A stretch of DNA of 29,204 bases from an uncultured Ruminococcus sp. Lineage in GTDB: Bacteria > Bacillota > Clostridia > Oscillospirales > Ruminococcaceae. Positions 635 to 29,204 of the stretch are shown here, one piece after another (the first letter of the stretch is position 1; the number at the start of each line of letters is the position of its first letter). Below the pieces are notes generated by a model. It saw nothing but the letters and a program-made list of their open reading frames with translations, ran no database searches and was not told the origin of the DNA. The stretch covers positions 1 to 29,204 of the forward strand of contig CAMWUF010000001.1 of NCBI GenBank assembly GCA_947177375.1. Reading direction: 5' to 3'. Position numbers and translations under genes: made by a program.

Positions 635-1689
635 GAATTGCCACCTCTCTTCTTAAAAAGATTTGATAATGATAAATTTTTTTGTTGCTGATTCTCCATC
701 AGATTCAAATTTTTATTTTCACTTTGAAAAACGAGAAGTTCATTCCAATCTTTGAATCCTTGATAGTCAAGATGTTTCTTTACGCTTTCAGAACGAACGA
801 AACCATTGTCTGATTCAAACTGCCTACCCTTATTATCATTATCTACACAAGAAATAATTTCCACTCCCTCAGACTGTAATTTTTTTGGAATCGTTGGCTT
901 TAGTCCAGCCATTGAAATGAATGCTGTACCTCTCATTAATTTGTTTTTTTTATCACAGAATGAGTAGAAACTCATCAGGTCAATTGCACTCTCAAACAAA
1001 TATGCCCTTTTTAATTTGCCATCTTTTGCAGGATAGGGCGTAAACATAAATACGCTGTCACGAGTTCCAGCAACTACACCTTTGAAACGTTTAAAAGAAG
1101 TAATTCCTTGAATTTCACCGCCAATAATTTCACCTTTGGCATTTTTATGAATAAAAACCGCATTTTCTCCTTTTAGTCTTTCGGTTTTCTGTGATTGGTA
1201 TAAATTTTGCGAGTGAACCAATTCTTCAACAATCGCAACAGGAATTTTTCTAGTCTTGCAAAGGTAAGCAAATAATCTTCTCATGTTTTGTGCTGGTGGT
1301 GGCATTTCCAACATTCTTTTTATTTTTTCAAGTTTTTCAACTGGAGGTGAAGTGTATTCTGGGGCTTGACTTTTTGGAAAATCATAAGAATGCATTGTAG
1401 AAATATTTCTTCCAGTCAGTTCCAGAACGGCTTGGTTAAAACTCATGCCAAGCAGTTCAGTAAGGCAATCAATGGAATTATTAATTCTTCCCTCTATGCC
1501 ACCACCTTTTTTAGTGGCATAATGACAGCACCATTTCTTTTCAGATGGATTAATGCAAAGTCCAGGAATTTCTTCCACATAATATTCAGTTCTATATTTT
1601 TTCAATGTGTAGCCACTTATTCGGAAATAATCGACTAAATCGGCTTCTCTTGCATCTTGCACTAACCTGTTAAAATCTTCTTTGTTCAT
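631..1689 (-). CDS. DUF3991/Toprim-domain protein (primase-like, ICE-associated)
   Basis: DnaG-like N-terminus (DLVDYF..., KWCCHY, NSIDCL), RLFAYLCKTRKI segment, Toprim motifs LFESAIDLMS and CVDNDNKG; RBS AAAGGAG. Confidence 0.85.
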   Translation of the reverse strand: MNKEDFNRLVQDAREADLVDYFRISGYTLKKYRTEYYVEEIPGLCINPSEKKWCCHYATKKGGGIEGRINNSIDCLTELLGMSFNQAVLELTGRNISTMHSYDFPKSQAPEYTSPPVEKLEKIKRMLEMPPPAQNMRRLFAYLCKTRKIPVAIVEELVHSQNLYQSQKTERLKGENAVFIHKNAKGEIIGGEIQGITSFKRFKGVVAGTRDSVFMFTPYPAKDGKLKRAYLFESAIDLMSFYSFCDKKNKLMRGTAFISMAGLKPTIPKKLQSEGVEIISCVDNDNKGRQFESDNGFVRSESVKKHLDYQGFKDWNELLVFQSENKNLNLMENQQQKNLSLSNLFKKRGGNS

Positions 1690-9169: not shown

Positions 9170-9198
9170 TTTACATTTTCACTCTGTTATGATATAAT
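9170..9198 (+). promoter_or_regulatory. Candidate strong sigma-A promoter, antisense to the operon
   Basis: TTTACA (9170-9175), 17-nt spacer ending in TG-a, then TATAAT (9193-9198). Confidence 0.7.
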
Positions 9199-9557: not shown

Positions 9558-10367
9558 ATGAATACCAAATTTGAAGAAGCAAAGTACATAAATGGGGCAG
9601 TTACTAGAATGTACTCTGCTGAAGAAATAACTGCGATACGCAATGAAAATACACAAAGATATAACGAAATAAAAGAATATCTTTTCTGCCCAGAATGCAT
9701 GCAACCAAAACTTATGCACAACCGATGTCAAAGTAAACAAGATTATTTTTCCACTTATCCTAGACAGTTTCATGTGGTAGGCTGTTCCTACGAATGTGAA
9801 AAAGCTACAAAGAAAATTTTGACATATTTAGGAGAAAGTAAAAATTTAAATAATCTACATACACGCCTCCAAGACTGTCTGCTTCTATTTATTAAAGGAC
9901 AAGCGGTTATAAATAATCCATGTATCATTTCCAAGCAAACAGATGTCCAGCTTTTAAAGCAAACCACTAATACACAGAATGCTTATGGAAAGCGGTACTA
10001 TATTCCAAGAAAACGTCTTACTGACTGTGTGGATCAAAGCAGTATTGACGATTTCAAAATTTTTTATGATACAGCAGAATTTAAATGGTATGAGGATGAG
10101 CATGGTGGATACTATCCTCATAGGCTTAATATCTATCATAACAATCGAGAAAACTTAATCTGTTCTTTGAGATTTTCTAATAACGTTTATGAGCATTTAC
10201 CATTAGAATACAGACAATTTGATGATGTATATTTTAGAGCGTTAATTGCTTTTTACACTAAACTAACAATTCATACTGATTCTGGAACAGAAAATAGGAC
10301 TTATTATGAGGGAATTATTAACTATTCACTAAAAATTACTTTTCTGGATATTCTTCCAATTGATTGA
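9558..10367 (+). CDS. Hypothetical protein with N-terminal CoiA-like Zn-binding motif (LFCPEC...YF...H...C), ~269 aa
   Basis: AGGAGA RBS at 9545-9550 before ATG 9558; CPEC-x25-H-x3-C pattern; only well-supported + strand gene in the window. Confidence 0.8.
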   Translation: MNTKFEEAKYINGAVTRMYSAEEITAIRNENTQRYNEIKEYLFCPECMQPKLMHNRCQSKQDYFSTYPRQFHVVGCSYECEKATKKILTYLGESKNLNNLHTRLQDCLLLFIKGQAVINNPCIISKQTDVQLLKQTTNTQNAYGKRYYIPRKRLTDCVDQSSIDDFKIFYDTAEFKWYEDEHGGYYPHRLNIYHNNRENLICSLRFSNNVYEHLPLEYRQFDDVYFRALIAFYTKLTIHTDSGTENRTYYEGIINYSLKITFLDILPID

Positions 10368-23169: not shown

Positions 23170-25737
23170 TTATTCAAAAACATCCATATCAAAATCATCA
23201 ATTTCTTGCAATTCGTCGAATTCAGAAAATCCTTCACTAGAATATTCTTCTGTAACTGAAATAGATTCCAATTCTGTATCCTCTAAGTTGTCAATATATT
23301 CGGGGTCTTCTTCTGGCTTGTCATAGTATTTAGTGTCAGTATCCTGTTCTGGTTCATTTTCCTGATTTAAGGAAAGAATGACGGAAATTTCATCTTCATC
23401 ATTCAACACCTCCTCTCTCTGTTTGACAGATTCACCTAATTCTAGTGATTCTAGTTTTGAAACTTTCCCATATCGAGGCATTTCCTCAACATATTCTTCG
23501 GAAAATGTTTCTAACTCTGAAATATCACCATATTCAGGCGATTCCTCAATATATTCCTCTGAAATAGCTTCACTGTCATCTTCCTCATCGGCATACAATT
23601 CCGCTTCCTCATAGGTTTCAAATTGAATAGTAACTTTTGTTACCTGTGGTGGAGTATCATTTCGTTTAAAAATACTCTCTATTTTCTGATGTACTGTTTG
23701 TTCCTCTTTTTCAAGATTAACAGGTACATTTTTTTCTTTTTCAATTAATTTCTGTTGTTCTTCAAATTCTTTTACACTAACTGCTCTGACTGTCTTTACA
23801 TCATAGGCATTATCAGGATTATAATCCTCCAGAAACTGATAATTAGGATGTTTTTCTATTGGATACTTCGTGCAGTAAAACGGATTATGCGAACGTATTC
23901 TCACAATACAATCACTAATGGGCATTGTTGCCACCTCATTTGTCTGCATAAGTTCACGACCAAGAATGCTATTATTTTCAGATGTGCTTGGAGATTTCCC
24001 TTTTGTGCGGTTTTCACCTTTCACATCAATTGTTTCTTTTCCAAGTGCTTCGGAAATATATTTCAGAGTACTTTCTTCTTGTCCGCCTAGAAATAATAGA
24101 CTATCACAATTACCAGTGATAACTTCCCATGTTTTCTCATATTTTGCTTTTAGTTGGGCAAGGTTCTGAATGATAACATTTAAACTCATGCCCATAGAAC
24201 GCACAAAAGCAATTACTTTATCAAAATCTGGAATTTGTCCTATATTGGCAAATTCGTCCATAATACAACGTACATGAACGGGAAGTGTTCCACCATATTT
24301 GAAATTTGCACGATTCGACAGAACATCAAACATTTGCGTATACAGCATTGCAACAACAAAGTTATATGTTGAATCTGTTGCAGGAATAATCAAAAATAAT
24401 GCGGTTTTTCTGTCACCTATTGTTTCAAGTTTGATATTATCACAACAGGTTAAATTCATCATATTATTCATGTTGAACATAAAAGTTTTCACATTTGCAC
24501 TTGATAAAAATGATTGTCCTGTTTCTTCAGGGGCGTTTCTAACTTCCTTGTATAAACGACCAGCAAGCGTATCGCCTTTGCGTTTTTCAAGCTCTATGAA
24601 ATCTTTATCAAGTGGACACAAGAACGCTTTAAATTGTCTTGCACGGAAATCTTCTTCGCTTTCGTCTGGATTTCTTTCAAGGAAAAATCCATCAGGTGCT
24701 TGACTTCCTCGTGGTGGATATTGTAAACGTCTCATTTTCTCTGTTACAGAGAAGAAATTGAGATGTGAAATATCTCTCGTTTCTGGGATAATTTTTCCAT
24801 TTTCCTCAAATTTTGCGTCATATTCACTTTCTTCAAACAGCAAAAATGTGATTGCTTCAAGTAAAGATTGCCCTTTTTGACTCCAAAAGTCATCTTTTTC
24901 GCCATCGCCTTTGGTTGACTTAAAAAGCACATTTATCATTTTTTTGATATTATCCTGTGATAAATCGCCATTGTGGTCATAAACATAATGGAATGGATTA
25001 TAATTATTAGAATGCTCCATTTGAATTAGATTCAAAACATGCACTTTATAGCCTGCTTCAGTTAGCATTTTTCCTGTAGATTGCAGAATTTCGCCCTTTG
25101 GGTCTGTAATAACATACGAAGTGTTCAACTGCATAATATTAGGCTTTGCATAAAACCTAGTCTTACCAGAACCAGAACCGCCAATAATAAGTACATTCAA
25201 GTTTAGAAGATGTTGCCTTGCATTTAACGAAAGCTTTACTTCTTCCGTTAAAATAATGTTGTTATCAACAGTCACTCCCATAAATTCGCCTTTTTTGTCA
25301 AATACACGCTTTCCATCAGAAGTTAGAATTGGTCTAAATTCAGGTTTTTTTTCTTTTTCAGCTAGTGATTTCATTTCGCTGTCATCGCCCCATTTGGCAC
25401 TGCCATGCTCTACTCCTCTACGGTGCAAACGTTTCTTTTCTTCTGTGTATTTGTAAAGTGCATAAATACTTGTACAACAGATACCCATAAAACCCATCTT
25501 TCCAGCATAACCACCTTTTGTTTGTAAGGCTTTCGTAATCAAATCTGGATTGGACAGCACTCTATTCAAGCCTTGACCCAACAGATTCACATCCACTTTT
25601 CCATCAGATTTTAGAGAGTAATCCATAGCAGCACCTAGAATAAAAGAAAATATAATTATTAGTAAAATAACAATGCCATAAATAATTAATGTAGACATAC
25701 TTGTCTTTTTTGGCATTCCTGCTCTTGATTTCGCCAT
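23170..25737 (-). CDS. virD4: VirD4/TraG type IV coupling protein with long acidic C-terminal tail
   Basis: Two N-terminal TM segments, HGSAKW, Walker A GGSGSGKT, DPKGE, Walker B MDEFANIG, GNCDSLLFLGG. Confidence 0.96.
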   Translation of the reverse strand: MAKSRAGMPKKTSMSTLIIYGIVILLIIIFSFILGAAMDYSLKSDGKVDVNLLGQGLNRVLSNPDLITKALQTKGGYAGKMGFMGICCTSIYALYKYTEEKKRLHRRGVEHGSAKWGDDSEMKSLAEKEKKPEFRPILTSDGKRVFDKKGEFMGVTVDNNIILTEEVKLSLNARQHLLNLNVLIIGGSGSGKTRFYAKPNIMQLNTSYVITDPKGEILQSTGKMLTEAGYKVHVLNLIQMEHSNNYNPFHYVYDHNGDLSQDNIKKMINVLFKSTKGDGEKDDFWSQKGQSLLEAITFLLFEESEYDAKFEENGKIIPETRDISHLNFFSVTEKMRRLQYPPRGSQAPDGFFLERNPDESEEDFRARQFKAFLCPLDKDFIELEKRKGDTLAGRLYKEVRNAPEETGQSFLSSANVKTFMFNMNNMMNLTCCDNIKLETIGDRKTALFLIIPATDSTYNFVVAMLYTQMFDVLSNRANFKYGGTLPVHVRCIMDEFANIGQIPDFDKVIAFVRSMGMSLNVIIQNLAQLKAKYEKTWEVITGNCDSLLFLGGQEESTLKYISEALGKETIDVKGENRTKGKSPSTSENNSILGRELMQTNEVATMPISDCIVRIRSHNPFYCTKYPIEKHPNYQFLEDYNPDNAYDVKTVRAVSVKEFEEQQKLIEKEKNVPVNLEKEEQTVHQKIESIFKRNDTPPQVTKVTIQFETYEEAELYADEEDDSEAISEEYIEESPEYGDISELETFSEEYVEEMPRYGKVSKLESLELGESVKQREEVLNDEDEISVILSLNQENEPEQDTDTKYYDKPEEDPEYIDNLEDTELESISVTEEYSSEGFSEFDELQEIDDFDMDVFE
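23455..23570. repeat. 60-bp (20-aa) duplication in the VirD4 acidic tail
   Basis: ISEEYIEESPEYGDISELET / FSEEYVEEMPRYGKVSKLES. Confidence 0.8.
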
Positions 25738-27884
25738 TATCTCCTACCTCCCATAGAAGATGGAGGAGAAACAGGAGGTATGTTTTGTGGCATATCTGAA
25801 GTTGGTGTATTCTCATATTCTTCTCTAATCCAATCTGGAGCTTCTGGAATATCGGTAATATTATATTCTTCTGGCGGAATATATTCAGGAACCTGTGCAT
25901 TGTCATATTGCTTTCTAAACCACTCTGGCTCTTCTGGAACATTCGTACTATATGCTTCTGGCGGAATAATTTCCTGCTGAAATGGTCGTTGATTTTGCCC
26001 ATGTTGTAGTTGTTGTGGTGGAACAGATTCTTGTTGAAATTGTCGTTGATTCTGCCCATGTTGTGGTTGTTGTGGTGAAACAGCTTCTTGCGAAGATGAC
26101 GGCTGATTTTGCATAAGGTCTCGCTTTGGCAATTTCAATTGCATATCAGATATTGTCTTGTTTTCCATTTCAGACAGATTCGATAATTCTTTCGCAATAT
26201 CAAATTTTTCACTTACCATTTCCATCAATTTTTCTGAATGTGCTTGAGAAATATCAAATTTATCGCTAATTTCTGCAACTGCTTTTTCAGGTTCAGAAAT
26301 ATCAATTTCTAACTTTTTGTCATGATGTGAAAGAATTACAGATTTTTCTTTCACTTCTTCAATCAAAACTACTTTTTCAGGATTCTGCGTTTCAGCCATT
26401 CGGAACACTTCTTTTGCCATTTGTTTGGCAATGTGTTCTGAAATGCCTTGTCTATGATAAAGCTGTGTCATTTGAAATAAAGAATCTTTTTTATCTGAAA
26501 AGGAAAGCCGTAATACTTGTTCATCAGATGATTTGTATTCCTTGCCATTCTGGTCTGTTTCCATACTGTTGATAGAAACACTCACAGAAAAACTATCTTT
26601 TCCTGTTCGTTCAACGGCATTAGAAACATCATTAATAGGTACTGATTTTGTAAATATATTACCCTCATCATCTGTACGACGCATTTGGCTAACAATAGCA
26701 GGATTTGTCATATCAAAGTCATTTTTAGTAAATTTATAATCCAAAGAAGAACTTTCTTCTCTAACATAATAATCCGAAACTTTTTCAGCCTTATCTATTA
26801 AGGCATTGATTTGTTTTGTATCTTGTAAGCCCATTTGCTCACGAAAAACAGTAGCCATTTGCTTTCTAGTCATATTTTCAGGGGTTAGAATGGCAAATTT
26901 ACCAGTTTCATTACTTCGGAACACAATGCGAGGAATGTGGTCAGTCTTAGGCGTTACGTGCCAACAAGAAAATTCTTTTGCATAAACATTTTCGCCCTCA
27001 ACTTGAATGTTAGCGTCAATATTAGAAAATTCTCTTTGTGGATTATCACCAAAAAATTGTTCTTTTTCTAATCCTTGCAGATATTTTTCGCCAAATTTAG
27101 CACAGACAATGCTAGATTTATTAACATCGTAACCAAATTTTTCTTGAATCTGGTCACTAAGTTCTTGTCTTGTTGGAATTTTATCAAATGAAATTTCTTT
27201 TCCTGAATGAACATCTTTCAAAATATAATAACCTTTGTCGTCTTTATCAAAAGTAACTTCCTTTTCTACTTCATTACATTTGCGAACAAACTCATTTCTA
27301 GCAATATGAATTGCTTTTTCGTCTGATTTTTCATACAGACAAAAATATTCACCATCTTTTGTTTTGCCAAATTGTGCTGATAGGTTATGTTTGTTTAGCT
27401 CACTGATAATAAAAGGCATTTCCCATTTCTGCACTTTGAAATTCCCTAGTTCCTGTGGTCTTTCCGCAATTTTATCCTTCATCATCTCTGTACAGATACG
27501 CTGGAAGATTGGCAAATCACCCGTTCTAACATTCGCATAAAGATTATCCTTATGTTCTGAACCTGTAAATGCGACTGGAATACCATATTCTTTAGCTTTT
27601 TTGGTGATATATTTTTTATCCGCATTAGTCAATCCTTGTTCTGATGCAGATATACTATCTCCGTTTTTCTTTGCACTAGCAATTAAATCACGGATTTTTG
27701 TTTCTCCTGGCTTTAAATCTGTTAAGTCAGTAGATTTTATTGGCTTTTTCTTTTGATTTTCGATAAGCATTTGCAGAAGTTTTGCAATCAAATCAACAGT
27801 CCTGTCAATCATATGCATTCCAGATTCTGCAACTCTAGTTGCCATTTGTAAAGTAGCACTAGTTACTTCATCACTCATATTCAT
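25737..27884 (-). CDS. Extended PcfB/DUF3801-like protein (~715 aa) with Q/P-rich repeat tail
   Basis: N-terminal GETKIRDL...KKAKEYGIPVAF...(R/K)..D...F pattern and a position immediately before virD4 (TAATG overlap); AAGGAG RBS favours ATG 27884. Confidence 0.7.
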   Translation of the reverse strand: MNMSDEVTSATLQMATRVAESGMHMIDRTVDLIAKLLQMLIENQKKKPIKSTDLTDLKPGETKIRDLIASAKKNGDSISASEQGLTNADKKYITKKAKEYGIPVAFTGSEHKDNLYANVRTGDLPIFQRICTEMMKDKIAERPQELGNFKVQKWEMPFIISELNKHNLSAQFGKTKDGEYFCLYEKSDEKAIHIARNEFVRKCNEVEKEVTFDKDDKGYYILKDVHSGKEISFDKIPTRQELSDQIQEKFGYDVNKSSIVCAKFGEKYLQGLEKEQFFGDNPQREFSNIDANIQVEGENVYAKEFSCWHVTPKTDHIPRIVFRSNETGKFAILTPENMTRKQMATVFREQMGLQDTKQINALIDKAEKVSDYYVREESSSLDYKFTKNDFDMTNPAIVSQMRRTDDEGNIFTKSVPINDVSNAVERTGKDSFSVSVSINSMETDQNGKEYKSSDEQVLRLSFSDKKDSLFQMTQLYHRQGISEHIAKQMAKEVFRMAETQNPEKVVLIEEVKEKSVILSHHDKKLEIDISEPEKAVAEISDKFDISQAHSEKLMEMVSEKFDIAKELSNLSEMENKTISDMQLKLPKRDLMQNQPSSSQEAVSPQQPQHGQNQRQFQQESVPPQQLQHGQNQRPFQQEIIPPEAYSTNVPEEPEWFRKQYDNAQVPEYIPPEEYNITDIPEAPDWIREEYENTPTSDMPQNIPPVSPPSSMGGRR
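25810..26095. repeat. Two repeat pairs in the PcfB-like tail: 57 bp (19 aa) and 87 bp (29 aa)
   Basis: QEAVSPQQPQHGQNQRQFQ/QESVPPQQLQHGQNQRPFQ (offsets 25985, 26042) and IPPEAY...PEEPEWFRKQY/IPPEEY...PEAPDWIREEY (offsets 25868, 25955). Confidence 0.88.
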
Positions 27885-27907
27885 ATTAAATATTTTTCTC
27901 CTTTCCA

Positions 27908-27936
27908 TTGACATACTAGTAAATTAGAGATATAAT
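27908..27936 (+). promoter_or_regulatory. Perfect consensus sigma-A promoter pointing away from the tra operon
   Basis: TTGACA (27908-27913), 17 nt, TATAAT (27931-27936). Confidence 0.8.
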
Positions 27937-28055
27937 ATATTTAGCAAAATTTTTAGGATTCATGGATATTTACTAATTTTTTCAGTACTTCTTCTTGTGT
28001 AGTTATGATTTTAATCGATGGAATGAATTATTGTATTTCTACGGAACGCTTAATG

Positions 28056-28091
28056 ATTATATCAGCAAAACTAATTTACCTGTAAAATTAG
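28056..28091 (-). promoter_or_regulatory. Candidate tra-operon promoter with overlapping operator-like palindrome
   Basis: Minus-strand TGaTATAAT (28064-28056); TTTACA at 28086-28081 (19-nt spacer); CTAATTT-N7-AAATTAG IR at 28071-28091. Confidence 0.55.
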
Positions 28092-28178
28092 ATTTTCAAC
28101 TTAGAGAATATTGTATTTCAGATTTAATCCAAAATATAGAAAAGTATAAAAATAAGAATATTTACTTTGATATTTATA

Positions 28179-28688
28179 TTACATATCTCTAAATTTTTCA
28201 GACAGGGAATGGTTCTTCCAGATTAGTTCGCCAAGAAATCGACTGATAAACATAAACTTAAAATATAATGCTATACTTTCCTGTTTGTCACAGTAATTCA
28301 TCATTTTTCGATAAAGATAGCCTATATAAATTTCGTTGTTTTGAGGTAAGAATATTCTTTGAGATTGGTATTCTATAAACGTAGTATTAAACCTTGCATT
28401 TGGATTAACATCAATAAATGATGCAATTTTAAATGGATTTCCAATGCAATTTTCCAGATATTTGCCCATATAACTTTCAAAATCATTTTCTTCCAGCAAT
28501 CTGGAATTGATTTGGTTAATTTCCAAGGCAATATCTGATATGTCAGTCACTATTTTTTTATCTGAAATATAGCTGTTTAACATACTTGAAATATCCATCA
28601 GTTCCCGTGAAAAAGTTTGATTATATATAGGAAAGACAAAACTATTTTCTATAAAAACAGGCTTTTCAAGTACATAATTTTCTTCCAT
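28179..28688 (-). CDS. Hypothetical protein (~169 aa)
   Basis: Long AT-rich ORF; AAAGGA before ATG 28688 (alternative start 28703); no recognisable motif. Confidence 0.7.
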   Translation of the reverse strand: MEENYVLEKPVFIENSFVFPIYNQTFSRELMDISSMLNSYISDKKIVTDISDIALEINQINSRLLEENDFESYMGKYLENCIGNPFKIASFIDVNPNARFNTTFIEYQSQRIFLPQNNEIYIGYLYRKMMNYCDKQESIALYFKFMFISRFLGELIWKNHSLSEKFRDM

Positions 28689-28704
28689 ATTGTTTCCTTT
28701 CATT

Positions 28705-28927
28705 ATTTTTTGTTTTATGCATTATTCCTCCCTTGTATTAAAAAAACCCGAGGATTTGACAGGTATAGTTCACCTAACAAAACCTCTGGTTTTCCAGTCA
28801 GTCTTTCAGAAATAGCTATTTTTTATCCATTTCTTGTAAATTTTCAATGGATTTTAATTTTTTTGCTCACATATTTTAGTGTGAAGATTATCAGCAATTT
28901 TTTCAAGATTTTTTGTTTTATGCATTA
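28705..28927. repeat. Perfect 20-bp direct repeat ATTTTTTGTTTTATGCATTA
   Basis: Identical copies at 28705-28724 and 28908-28927. Confidence 0.9.
28740..28793 (-). terminator. Intrinsic terminator-like hairpin (possibly bidirectional)
   Basis: Arms 28743-28758 and 28778-28793 match at 14/16, with inner AGGT/ACCT; a T7 run ends the stem on the minus strand. Confidence 0.65.
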
Positions 28928-29204
28928 CTCCGAGAGTTATAAAGATTTTAATGCACCAACACAGTACCATCATAGCACCTAATATTATAATTCCGTATTT
29001 TGTATACTTGAAACCATTGTTAACTTCAGAGAAAATATTGTAATCTATGTCTAAAGCTAACAGAAATATTACTATAATTGTTGATAACAAAAATCCTTTT
29101 CCTATTAATTCACACACACACCTTTCATTAACAACATATTTTCTTACTTTATGTCTAAGCGACATATATTCTTCATGACATTTTGTTCTATTATCATCTA
29201 TCAC
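28854..29204 (-). CDS. Two-TM membrane protein, 5' end truncated by the window edge
   Basis: ORF open to the window end, with two hydrophobic helices. Confidence 0.55.
   Translation of the reverse strand: MIDDNRTKCHEEYMSLRHKVRKYVVNERCVCELIGKGFLLSTIIVIFLLALDIDYNIFSEVNNGFKYTKYGIIILGAMMVLCWCIKIFITLGVMHKTKNLEKIADNLHTKICEQKN

Follow-up and report, generated by a model that had tools for sequence, protein, structure and literature searches.

Promoters that face each other upstream of Gram-positive conjugation genes are known from pCF10, where PQ and PX are convergent over 223 nt, PX drives prgX together with the structured Anti-Q RNA, and the PQ leader encodes a peptide and an attenuator, as given in PMC3181467 and in Chatterjee 2011 as cited there. 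In noncontiguous operons, or excludons, an antisense gene with its own promoter lies inside an operon, e.g. in S. aureus and, for tha-1/ith-1, in phage 80alpha (PMC11087260, PMC7154746). A third arrangement is the bidirectional promoter, in which symmetry of the -10 element gives divergent starts 18 bp apart (Warman 2021, as related in PMC10268837).

Here we compare these systems with a locus in front of a PcfB-like gene. The DNA analysed (29,204 nt; referred to as the window) makes up all of contig 1 in a Ruminococcus-like MAG of the Oscillospiraceae that is 80% complete. On its minus strand lies a type IV secretion (T4SS)/transfer gene set of the Gram-positive kind that includes genes for the PcfB-like protein (715 aa), a VirD4 coupling protein, PrgI and a VirB4 ATPase, as well as topoisomerase III (TopoIII), a 2458-aa polyvalent protein and a DUF3991-Toprim protein. 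The PcfB-like gene is separated from a 169-aa gene by 294 nt with 22% G+C, and in this stretch two predicted promoters, P(+) and P(-), stand face-to-face with their starts ~107 nt apart (Table 1). An initial annotation had read them as a convergent antisense switch of the pCF10 type. The reading that we find best supported, and regard as probable, is instead that of an orphaned cargo-gene promoter in a recombination hotspot, with possible interference with the T4SS genes.

Table 1 Predicted features in front of the PcfB-like gene and their positions in the window
Feature	Position	Strand	Details
PcfB-like gene	25737..27903	-	ATG 27884, RBS AAGGAG 27903..27898; then VirD4 and T4SS genes
P(+), sigma-70/sigma-A TTGACA-17-TATAAT	27908..27936	+	12/12; predicted start near 27943
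Reciprocal -10-like hexamer TATTAT	27932..27937	-	Read from the sequence; without usable -35
Residual 5' end of cargo gene (possible): weak RBS-like AGGA, ATG 27962, MDIY, in-frame TAA 27974-27976	27955..27976	+	Codon print
GNAT-like remnant, C-terminal 69 codons + stop	27986..28192	+	Blastx; pseudogene
P(-), TTTACA-19-TGaTATAAT	28056..28086	-	11/12 + TG; TTTACA 28086..28081, TG 28064..28063, -10 28061..28056; predicted start near 28049
Palindrome CTAATTT-N7-AAATTAG (7-7-7)	28071..28091		Spans -35 of P(-)
169-aa gene, P0002/P0005 family	28179..28688	-	Convergent partner of GNAT-like gene
Bidirectional intrinsic terminator hairpin	28745..28800		-22.6 and -18.2 kcal/mol, z -2.8 and -2.5

The N-terminus of the PcfB-like protein matches DUF3801/PcfB only below threshold (E 8.7e-4, 19.8 bits vs a cutoff of 24.1). 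Its true start is the ATG listed in Table 1 (MNMSDE) and not position 27914, and this start is kept in five relatives (genome loci L005-L009) in which the protein is 54-97% identical. Blastn against the plasmid database gave no match. The Q/P-rich C-terminal tail of the protein contains tandem repeats in variable number (window 25805-26090; L010:5943-6225), and in L010, a metagenome contig with the same locus, the tail is ~200 nt longer (792 aa from an upstream ATG vs 725 aa for the equivalent window frame).

P(+) was found as first described, i.e. as a perfect plus-strand promoter that starts 4 nt from the RBS of the PcfB-like gene. It has the hallmarks of a sigma-A promoter (TTGACA, a spacer of 17 ± 1 nt and TATAAT) and it is the sole 12/12 site of the 29-kb window, where shuffles predict 0.02. 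The accompanying claim that its transcript has no convincing protein was not confirmed, and the stretch between the promoters is no tra leader, as it encodes the C-terminal remnant of a GNAT-like gene on the plus strand. Blastx with positions 27930-28200 as query matched this remnant to the protein of an intact gene in another locus (L038) with E 1.3e-25 and 57% identity over 69 residues, ending at the same C-terminal residue; among the corresponding proteins of L038 to L041 the E-values range from 1e-25 to 3e-20 and the last residues are the same. The plus-strand ORF 27995-28192 overlaps the stop of the 169-aa gene, a P0002-family member, by 14 nt (28179-28192).

Compared with a full-length ORF of ~175 aa, only the part equivalent to residues 107-175 is left, and residues 1 to ~106, with the N-terminal beta-sheet and the predicted acetyl-CoA loop R-x-x-x-G-x-G-K, are gone. 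Between P(+) and the remnant the ATG at 27962 and the TAA that follows it share the frame of the C-terminal part, and we consider this short segment as possibly the residue of the 5' end of the cargo gene; whether its ATG is the original start is uncertain, and the likeness of MDIY to the MSIFDI N-termini of intact homologues is suggestive at most. The remnant is 51% identical to its homologues and the intact genes are 43-49% identical among themselves (alignment A4). Since the remnant is no more diverged than the intact genes, either the truncation is recent or some constraint still acts. Six contigs, each from a different sample accession, have the truncation in identical form, which argues against an artefact. 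For an intact partner, an AF2 model (pLDDT 71) compared with PDB using Foldseek retrieved GNAT acetyltransferases only (E 4e-4 to 3e-2), with TM-scores of just 0.35-0.44. On the basis of this model we predict that the decayed gene encoded a protein of ~175 aa with a GNAT-like fold. The intact homologues thus resemble GNAT N-acetyltransferases in predicted fold and in having the R-x-x-x-G-x-G-K loop at the position of the acetyl-CoA motif, while the window copy differs from them in that the whole N-terminal and motif-A part is absent.

An exhaustive phmmer search with the 169-aa protein as query gave 11 clusters (a word-indexed protein search returned the query alone, and ESM Atlas gave no match). 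In five loci (L038, L039, L040, L041 and L042, of which L042 was located by way of a homologue of the partner) the homologue of the 169-aa gene is followed by a convergent partner gene encoding between 122 aa, where a contig end cuts it, and 191 aa, and in four of the five (L038, L040, L041 and L042) the two stops overlap by 14 nt as in the window. The 169-aa gene is not obligatorily paired, because in L029 its homologue (180 aa, 49% identity) stands without a partner. The previously unnamed cassette is now defined: it consists of a protein of 168-180 aa without Pfam match and a convergent GNAT-like gene of ~175 aa with an exact 14-nt stop overlap (L038:964-2150; L040:2501-3569; L041:1905-2925; L042:3501-4803; window 27986-28688), and it may represent a toxin-antitoxin-like or defence pair. 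An Xre-type HTH gene is located directly upstream of the cassette in L038 and L042, and the insertion point is either before TopoIII (L040, L042) or before the PcfB-like gene (window).

Promoters of the P(+) type stand before the homologous partner genes in both L042 and L040. The intact partner of L042 has TTGACA-17-TG-TATAAT (12/12 plus TG), back-to-back with the TopoIII start and followed by GAGGTG and ATG, and that of L040 has TTGAAA-18-TG-TATACT (10/12 plus TG), likewise back-to-back with the TopoIII start. The homology of the promoter blocks themselves between the window and L040/L042 is weak and in part due to the consensus itself, and a MAFFT alignment of the 5' regions of the cargo genes was uninformative. 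Judged by its sequence and position, P(+) is a genuine sigma-A-type promoter that belongs to the cargo gene rather than to a regulatory RNA. Because ~100 N-terminal codons are gone and a TAA interrupts what is left, it is probably the orphaned native promoter of a dead, backwards-inserted cargo gene, and the "convergent switch" would then for the most part be the wreck of a gene.

The convergent pair also allows a reading in which P(+) chiefly yields a long antisense RNA over the 169-aa gene that keeps this gene off, and in which the two genes may once have been mutually antagonistic, as in a toxin-antitoxin pair or a noncontiguous operon. The stop-overlapping pair is kept in five loci and the window, there is no terminator between the two genes and the first one on the plus strand lies beyond the 169-aa gene, and for the latter no separate promoter is evident downstream of the hairpin. 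Against this, both proteins are without match in Pfam, PADLOC and NCBIfam, and the L029 homologue lacks the partner; we therefore consider such silencing distinctly unlikely and retain the orphaned cargo-gene promoter as the preferred explanation.

The region in front of the PcfB-like gene differs among related elements. The upstream DNA is shared by none of the five loci L005-L009 (0/5) and no promoter pair comparable to P(+)/P(-) was found in them, and a blastn search of 400 same-family genomes with 27880-28200 as query turned up short AT-rich chance matches only. The conservation of the promoter pair and 9-mer in related elements, by which a switch was to be recognised, is hence seen neither in these loci nor in the family genomes, and the sole copies of the convergent arrangement are 100% identical. 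In L005, where the PcfB-like protein is 97% and the gene DNA 98% identical, homology to the window ends exactly at the PcfB-like ATG and resumes at the terminator hairpin (window 28737-28808; 97% match), and so the window holds an 851-bp replacement between these two points. In L006 the PcfB-like gene is preceded by ParA and ParB-like genes. The 169-aa gene is present in six metagenome contigs, with 100% identity among them over the gap. Two of these, L010 and L011, reach past the window end and show, in order on the operon strand, YezD, a terminator, a cassette and a duplicated YezD 3' stub with terminator, after which come the 169-aa gene, the gap and finally the PcfB-like gene. The L010/L011 cassette comprises DUF6037 (on the opposite strand), a 67-aa ORF, a 76-aa Xre/CI-type HTH gene and genes for 209 and 223 aa. 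Since same-strand genes continue upstream (YezD and the Xre cassette, or ParA/ParB in L006), the operon does not begin with the PcfB-like gene, contrary to the initial annotation.

Several observations concern recombination at this junction. An Xre-HTH ORF in L035 (1432-1713) starts with MNISDE, copying the first codons of the PcfB-like gene (MNMSDE), and together with the homology break of L005 at the ATG this would suggest that cargo is swapped through recombination at the PcfB-like start. We conclude that the junction before the PcfB-like gene is a hotspot of cargo swapping and recombination. The 3' end of YezD (DUF2292) with its hairpin is present twice (L010:417-487 and L010:3110-3180; window 28737-28812), the two stubs bracket a cassette of 2.7 kb and the loops of the two hairpins differ. 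A 31-nt direct repeat with 90% identity (window 28698-28728 and 28901-28931) looks like a recombination scar: the MHKTKN codons with which the 223-aa gene ends recur a short way before the RBS of the 169-aa gene. Over 1.44 kb (window 27385-28823) there are zero SNPs relative to L010/L011, with flanks that differ by ~0.55% (~8 expected), which fits a recent sweep or an exchange of the segment. As other origins of the 264-nt gap, a decayed HTH, DUF6037 or 256-aa gene was rejected (blastx E > 0.5), and an imperfect inverted repeat of 20-28 nt on either side of the gap (27921-27948/28166-28195), considered as MITE ends, is probably due to chance as 60 such pairs exist in 1.5 kb.

For the minus promoter, the TTTACA and TGaTATAAT elements reported in the initial annotation are present, but the spacer is 19 nt and not ~17; because of this length a standard promoter scan missed P(-), which was found in a later scan. 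In shuffles of a 238-nt stretch a site of this quality on its strand occurs with p = 0.016, and with the TG with p = 0.0008. Its -10 falls in the codons N-D-Y-I-S of the remnant and the palindrome over its -35 in the codons T-N-L-P-V-K-L-D. In L038, L039 and L040 the homologous codons yield neither TGnTATAAT nor the palindrome, and the promoter-like sites on the operon strand of the intact partners are weaker and at other positions. P(-) is therefore lineage-specific, and it is a candidate internal promoter for the PcfB-like/T4SS genes that lies antisense inside the pseudogene; the quality of the site makes it a reasonable one, as does the strong bidirectional terminator that precedes the 169-aa gene.

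The 9-mer shared by both spacers, GTAAATTAG, could be confirmed (27919-27927 on the plus and 28079..28071 on the minus strand). It occurs in these two copies only in the whole window, and its offset differs, 5 nt after the -35 of P(+) vs 1 nt after that of P(-). Shuffling the 294-nt stretch at its 22% G+C yields some inverted 9-mer pair in 61% of trials; a 7-mer that occurs four times, as AAATTAG does, arises with p = 0.039 and a 7-N-7 palindrome with p = 0.28. The frame of the dead gene contains P(-), the palindrome and three of the four AAATTAG half-sites, two of the half-sites being within the 69-codon remnant, and none of these elements is found at the matching codons of intact relatives. 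That P(-) exceeds chance and the half-sites cluster is left unexplained by decay alone, and some selection, for operon-directed transcription or a binding site within the dead gene, is possible on sequence grounds. Of two candidate roles for the motif, that as the mark of a host regulon was rejected, since the sole other perfect copy of the palindrome in the genome is inside a flavoprotein gene, and that as the target of the Xre repressor of the upstream cassette is not supported, since AAATTAG is absent from L010 1-3230. The Xre promoter block holds a different repeat, TCCCT-N7-AGGGA-like.

These data bear on whether the locus has been exapted, so that a kept P(+), a new P(-) and AAATTAG operators set T4SS expression on or off through interference and antisense pairing, controlled by a regulator that binds the motif. 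In its favour, both promoters beat chance, the 9-mer is in both spacers, the half-sites cluster and the palindrome covers the -35 of P(-); in addition, the strong upstream terminator implies that the T4SS genes plausibly need P(-), and the segment free of SNPs relative to L010/L011 has diverged flanks. We nevertheless regard exaptation as unlikely, given that conservation is limited to copies that are 100% identical, that the motif statistics are weak after composition is taken into account, and that the palindrome and -10 are encoded by remnant codons for a conserved peptide and are missing in intact relatives. Furthermore, no cognate regulator is known, the Xre gene having another operator-like repeat and no AAATTAG nearby, and neither a structured antisense RNA nor an attenuator is predicted. 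The orphaned promoter of a decayed cargo gene accounts better for P(+).

With respect to transcripts, the terminator hairpin is the predicted stop for upstream operon transcripts on the minus strand and also the first plausible stop for the plus transcript, ~850 nt past its start; no plus-strand terminator was found before 28491 or 28745. The plus transcript folds less stably than its shuffles (z +1.97), and the leader 28049..27885 has no significant structure (z -0.19), terminator or Rfam match. Rfam searches of the whole window and, with permissive settings, of 27700-29204 gave no match. A discrete small antisense RNA was rejected, there being no stable fold and no nearby terminator, and the suggestion that the plus transcript may be a regulatory RNA is not supported, as no structured small RNA, terminator or attenuator is predicted here on either strand.

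Compared with pCF10, the locus is alike in having predicted face-to-face promoters upstream of Gram-positive conjugation genes, with a predicted overlap of ~107 nt vs 223 nt. It is unlike pCF10 in lacking a repressor gene, a structured and terminated RNA, a leader peptide and an attenuator; the antisense promoter would drive only a truncated GNAT-like remnant where PX drives a repressor and a structured RNA, and on the sense side there is no leader with a signalling-peptide ORF and an attenuator or terminator. There is no sequence or protein homology between the two, and the arrangement in the window is not conserved in related elements. Hence, of the proposed convergent switch the face-to-face geometry stands, while a dedicated pCF10-like antisense switch finds no support in the comparison: P(+) is more simply the native promoter of an anti-operon cargo gene, P(-) and the palindrome are not at the homologous codons of intact relatives, the sequence at the pcfB position is not conserved in related elements, structured RNA, terminator and attenuator are missing and the plus transcript encodes no regulator as PX does with prgX, and the PcfB-like gene is not the operon head.

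We propose that a small cassette was inserted into the transfer operon of related Oscillospiraceae conjugative elements, with a backwards GNAT-like gene run by a near-consensus promoter that abuts the RBS/start of the next transfer gene. In the window the cassette lies directly before the PcfB-like gene; its backwards gene is short of ~100 N-terminal codons and has an in-frame stop, with the promoter, a 5' scrap and the last 69 codons as the survivors. The orphaned P(+), which presumably still fires, would give a non-coding RNA of ~850 nt that covers the pseudogene, P(-) and the 169-aa gene in antisense and ends at the hairpin near 28745-28800. If both promoters fire, their orientation entails head-on transcription, and the P(+) RNA would meet T4SS-bound transcription, including that from P(-). 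Collision or occlusion, and perhaps processing of double-stranded RNA, would then damp T4SS expression, in the way described in PMC11087260 for the noncontiguous operons of S. aureus and 80alpha. Head-on transcription with interference is physically likely given this geometry, and the damping would be a side effect of the arrival and decay of the cargo and not a purpose-built switch in the style of pCF10.

The likeness to noncontiguous operons is in an opposite-strand gene with its own promoter nested among co-directional mobile-element genes (a pseudogene in the window, an intact gene in L040 and L042), and in head-on transcription that is expected to set two expression states against each other. 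The differences are that the antisense gene is dead here, leaving a promoter and a predicted non-coding transcript, and that we deal with an Oscillospiraceae conjugative element known from sequence and not with a staphylococcal phage or chromosome. The window also has an intact noncontiguous example: the gene 9558-10367, its lone intact plus-strand gene, is preceded by TTTACA-17-TG-TATAAT (9170-9198, plus strand) located ~20 nt from the RBS of the polyvalent protein, which is the head-on architecture of the PcfB-like junction, except that the cargo gene here is alive. A more general possibility, which we rate as rather improbable, is that cargo is systematically placed head-on in the transfer operon so that its expression and that of the T4SS genes are mutually exclusive, and that here the kept promoter together with the new opposing promoter and AAATTAG acts as a brake on transfer. 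Should head-on cargo promoters indeed throttle T4SS expression, this would bear on how transfer is restrained in gut and rumen elements. The chief value of our analysis is a correction: what looked like a striking regulatory signature, with an outward perfect promoter, an opposing promoter and a shared motif, is made up of a promoter and the C-terminal stump of a decayed gene, and AT-rich mobile elements will present this pitfall again.

Outward promoters are also present at other cargo genes. Within the element, the 91 nt around P(+) have their best non-self match on the opposite strand, immediately before the Xre gene. Among homologues of the Xre protein (59-81% identity), taken with their genomic contexts, the HTH gene either stands immediately before the PcfB-like gene or is divergent from a 256-aa gene (L031/L032, L036), or it faces DUF6037 (L033, L010). 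In L010, L031, L033 and L036 a TTGAC(A/T)-17-TATAAT promoter (11-12/12) on the other strand abuts the RBS of the HTH gene; these blocks align with that of the window at 72% column identity, and the ATATTATA core is invariant across the four homologous blocks. With an outward promoter at the HTH RBS in four contexts, such promoters are a feature that cargo insertions share across this family of elements.

In L031 and L036 a gap of 68-69 nt is the only room for a promoter of the HTH gene. Because the block may be bidirectional, TATTAT in the window is a possible weak proximal promoter of the PcfB-like gene, with a start near 27925 that would be 18 bp from the plus start. The arrangement shares with bidirectional promoters, as these are portrayed in PMC10268837, a near-symmetric -10 core, a reciprocal hexamer and AT-rich, horizontally acquired DNA; relative to that portrayal, P(+) differs in having a full consensus -35 and in facing a former gene, and is in the first place a conventional directional promoter. 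One might go further and take the TATTAT reciprocal to ATATTATA, directed toward the PcfB-like gene, as the useful arm, with a start near 27925 and a 41-nt leader carrying the RBS; the plus arm would then merely follow from the symmetry of the -10. The sequence does show the 18-bp spacing and the reciprocal -11A/-7T that this source describes, the core is unchanged in four blocks and the HTH genes of L031 and L036 have just the short gap. Yet the perfect -35 serves the plus arm alone, the operon-strand arm is without -35 or TG, and the plus arm demonstrably faces a gene in relatives. This makes the proposal very improbable; P(+) as a cargo-gene promoter remains the reading we prefer.

The promoter spacers before the Xre genes contain an inverted repeat, TCCCT-A7-AGGGA and variants (L031:2432-2500, L036:1933-2000 and L033:2440-2500), which is probably the Xre operator; the window block keeps only the right half (TAGAGA) of an Xre-type inverted repeat. 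In L010 an operon-strand ORF of 67 aa (L010:1253-1456) lies between DUF6037 and its probable promoter, TTGACT-17-TATAAT (1489..1461), and is either a real small gene antisense to the 240-nt DUF6037 leader or spurious; the corresponding gap in L033 is 159 nt and holds no counterpart of this ORF.
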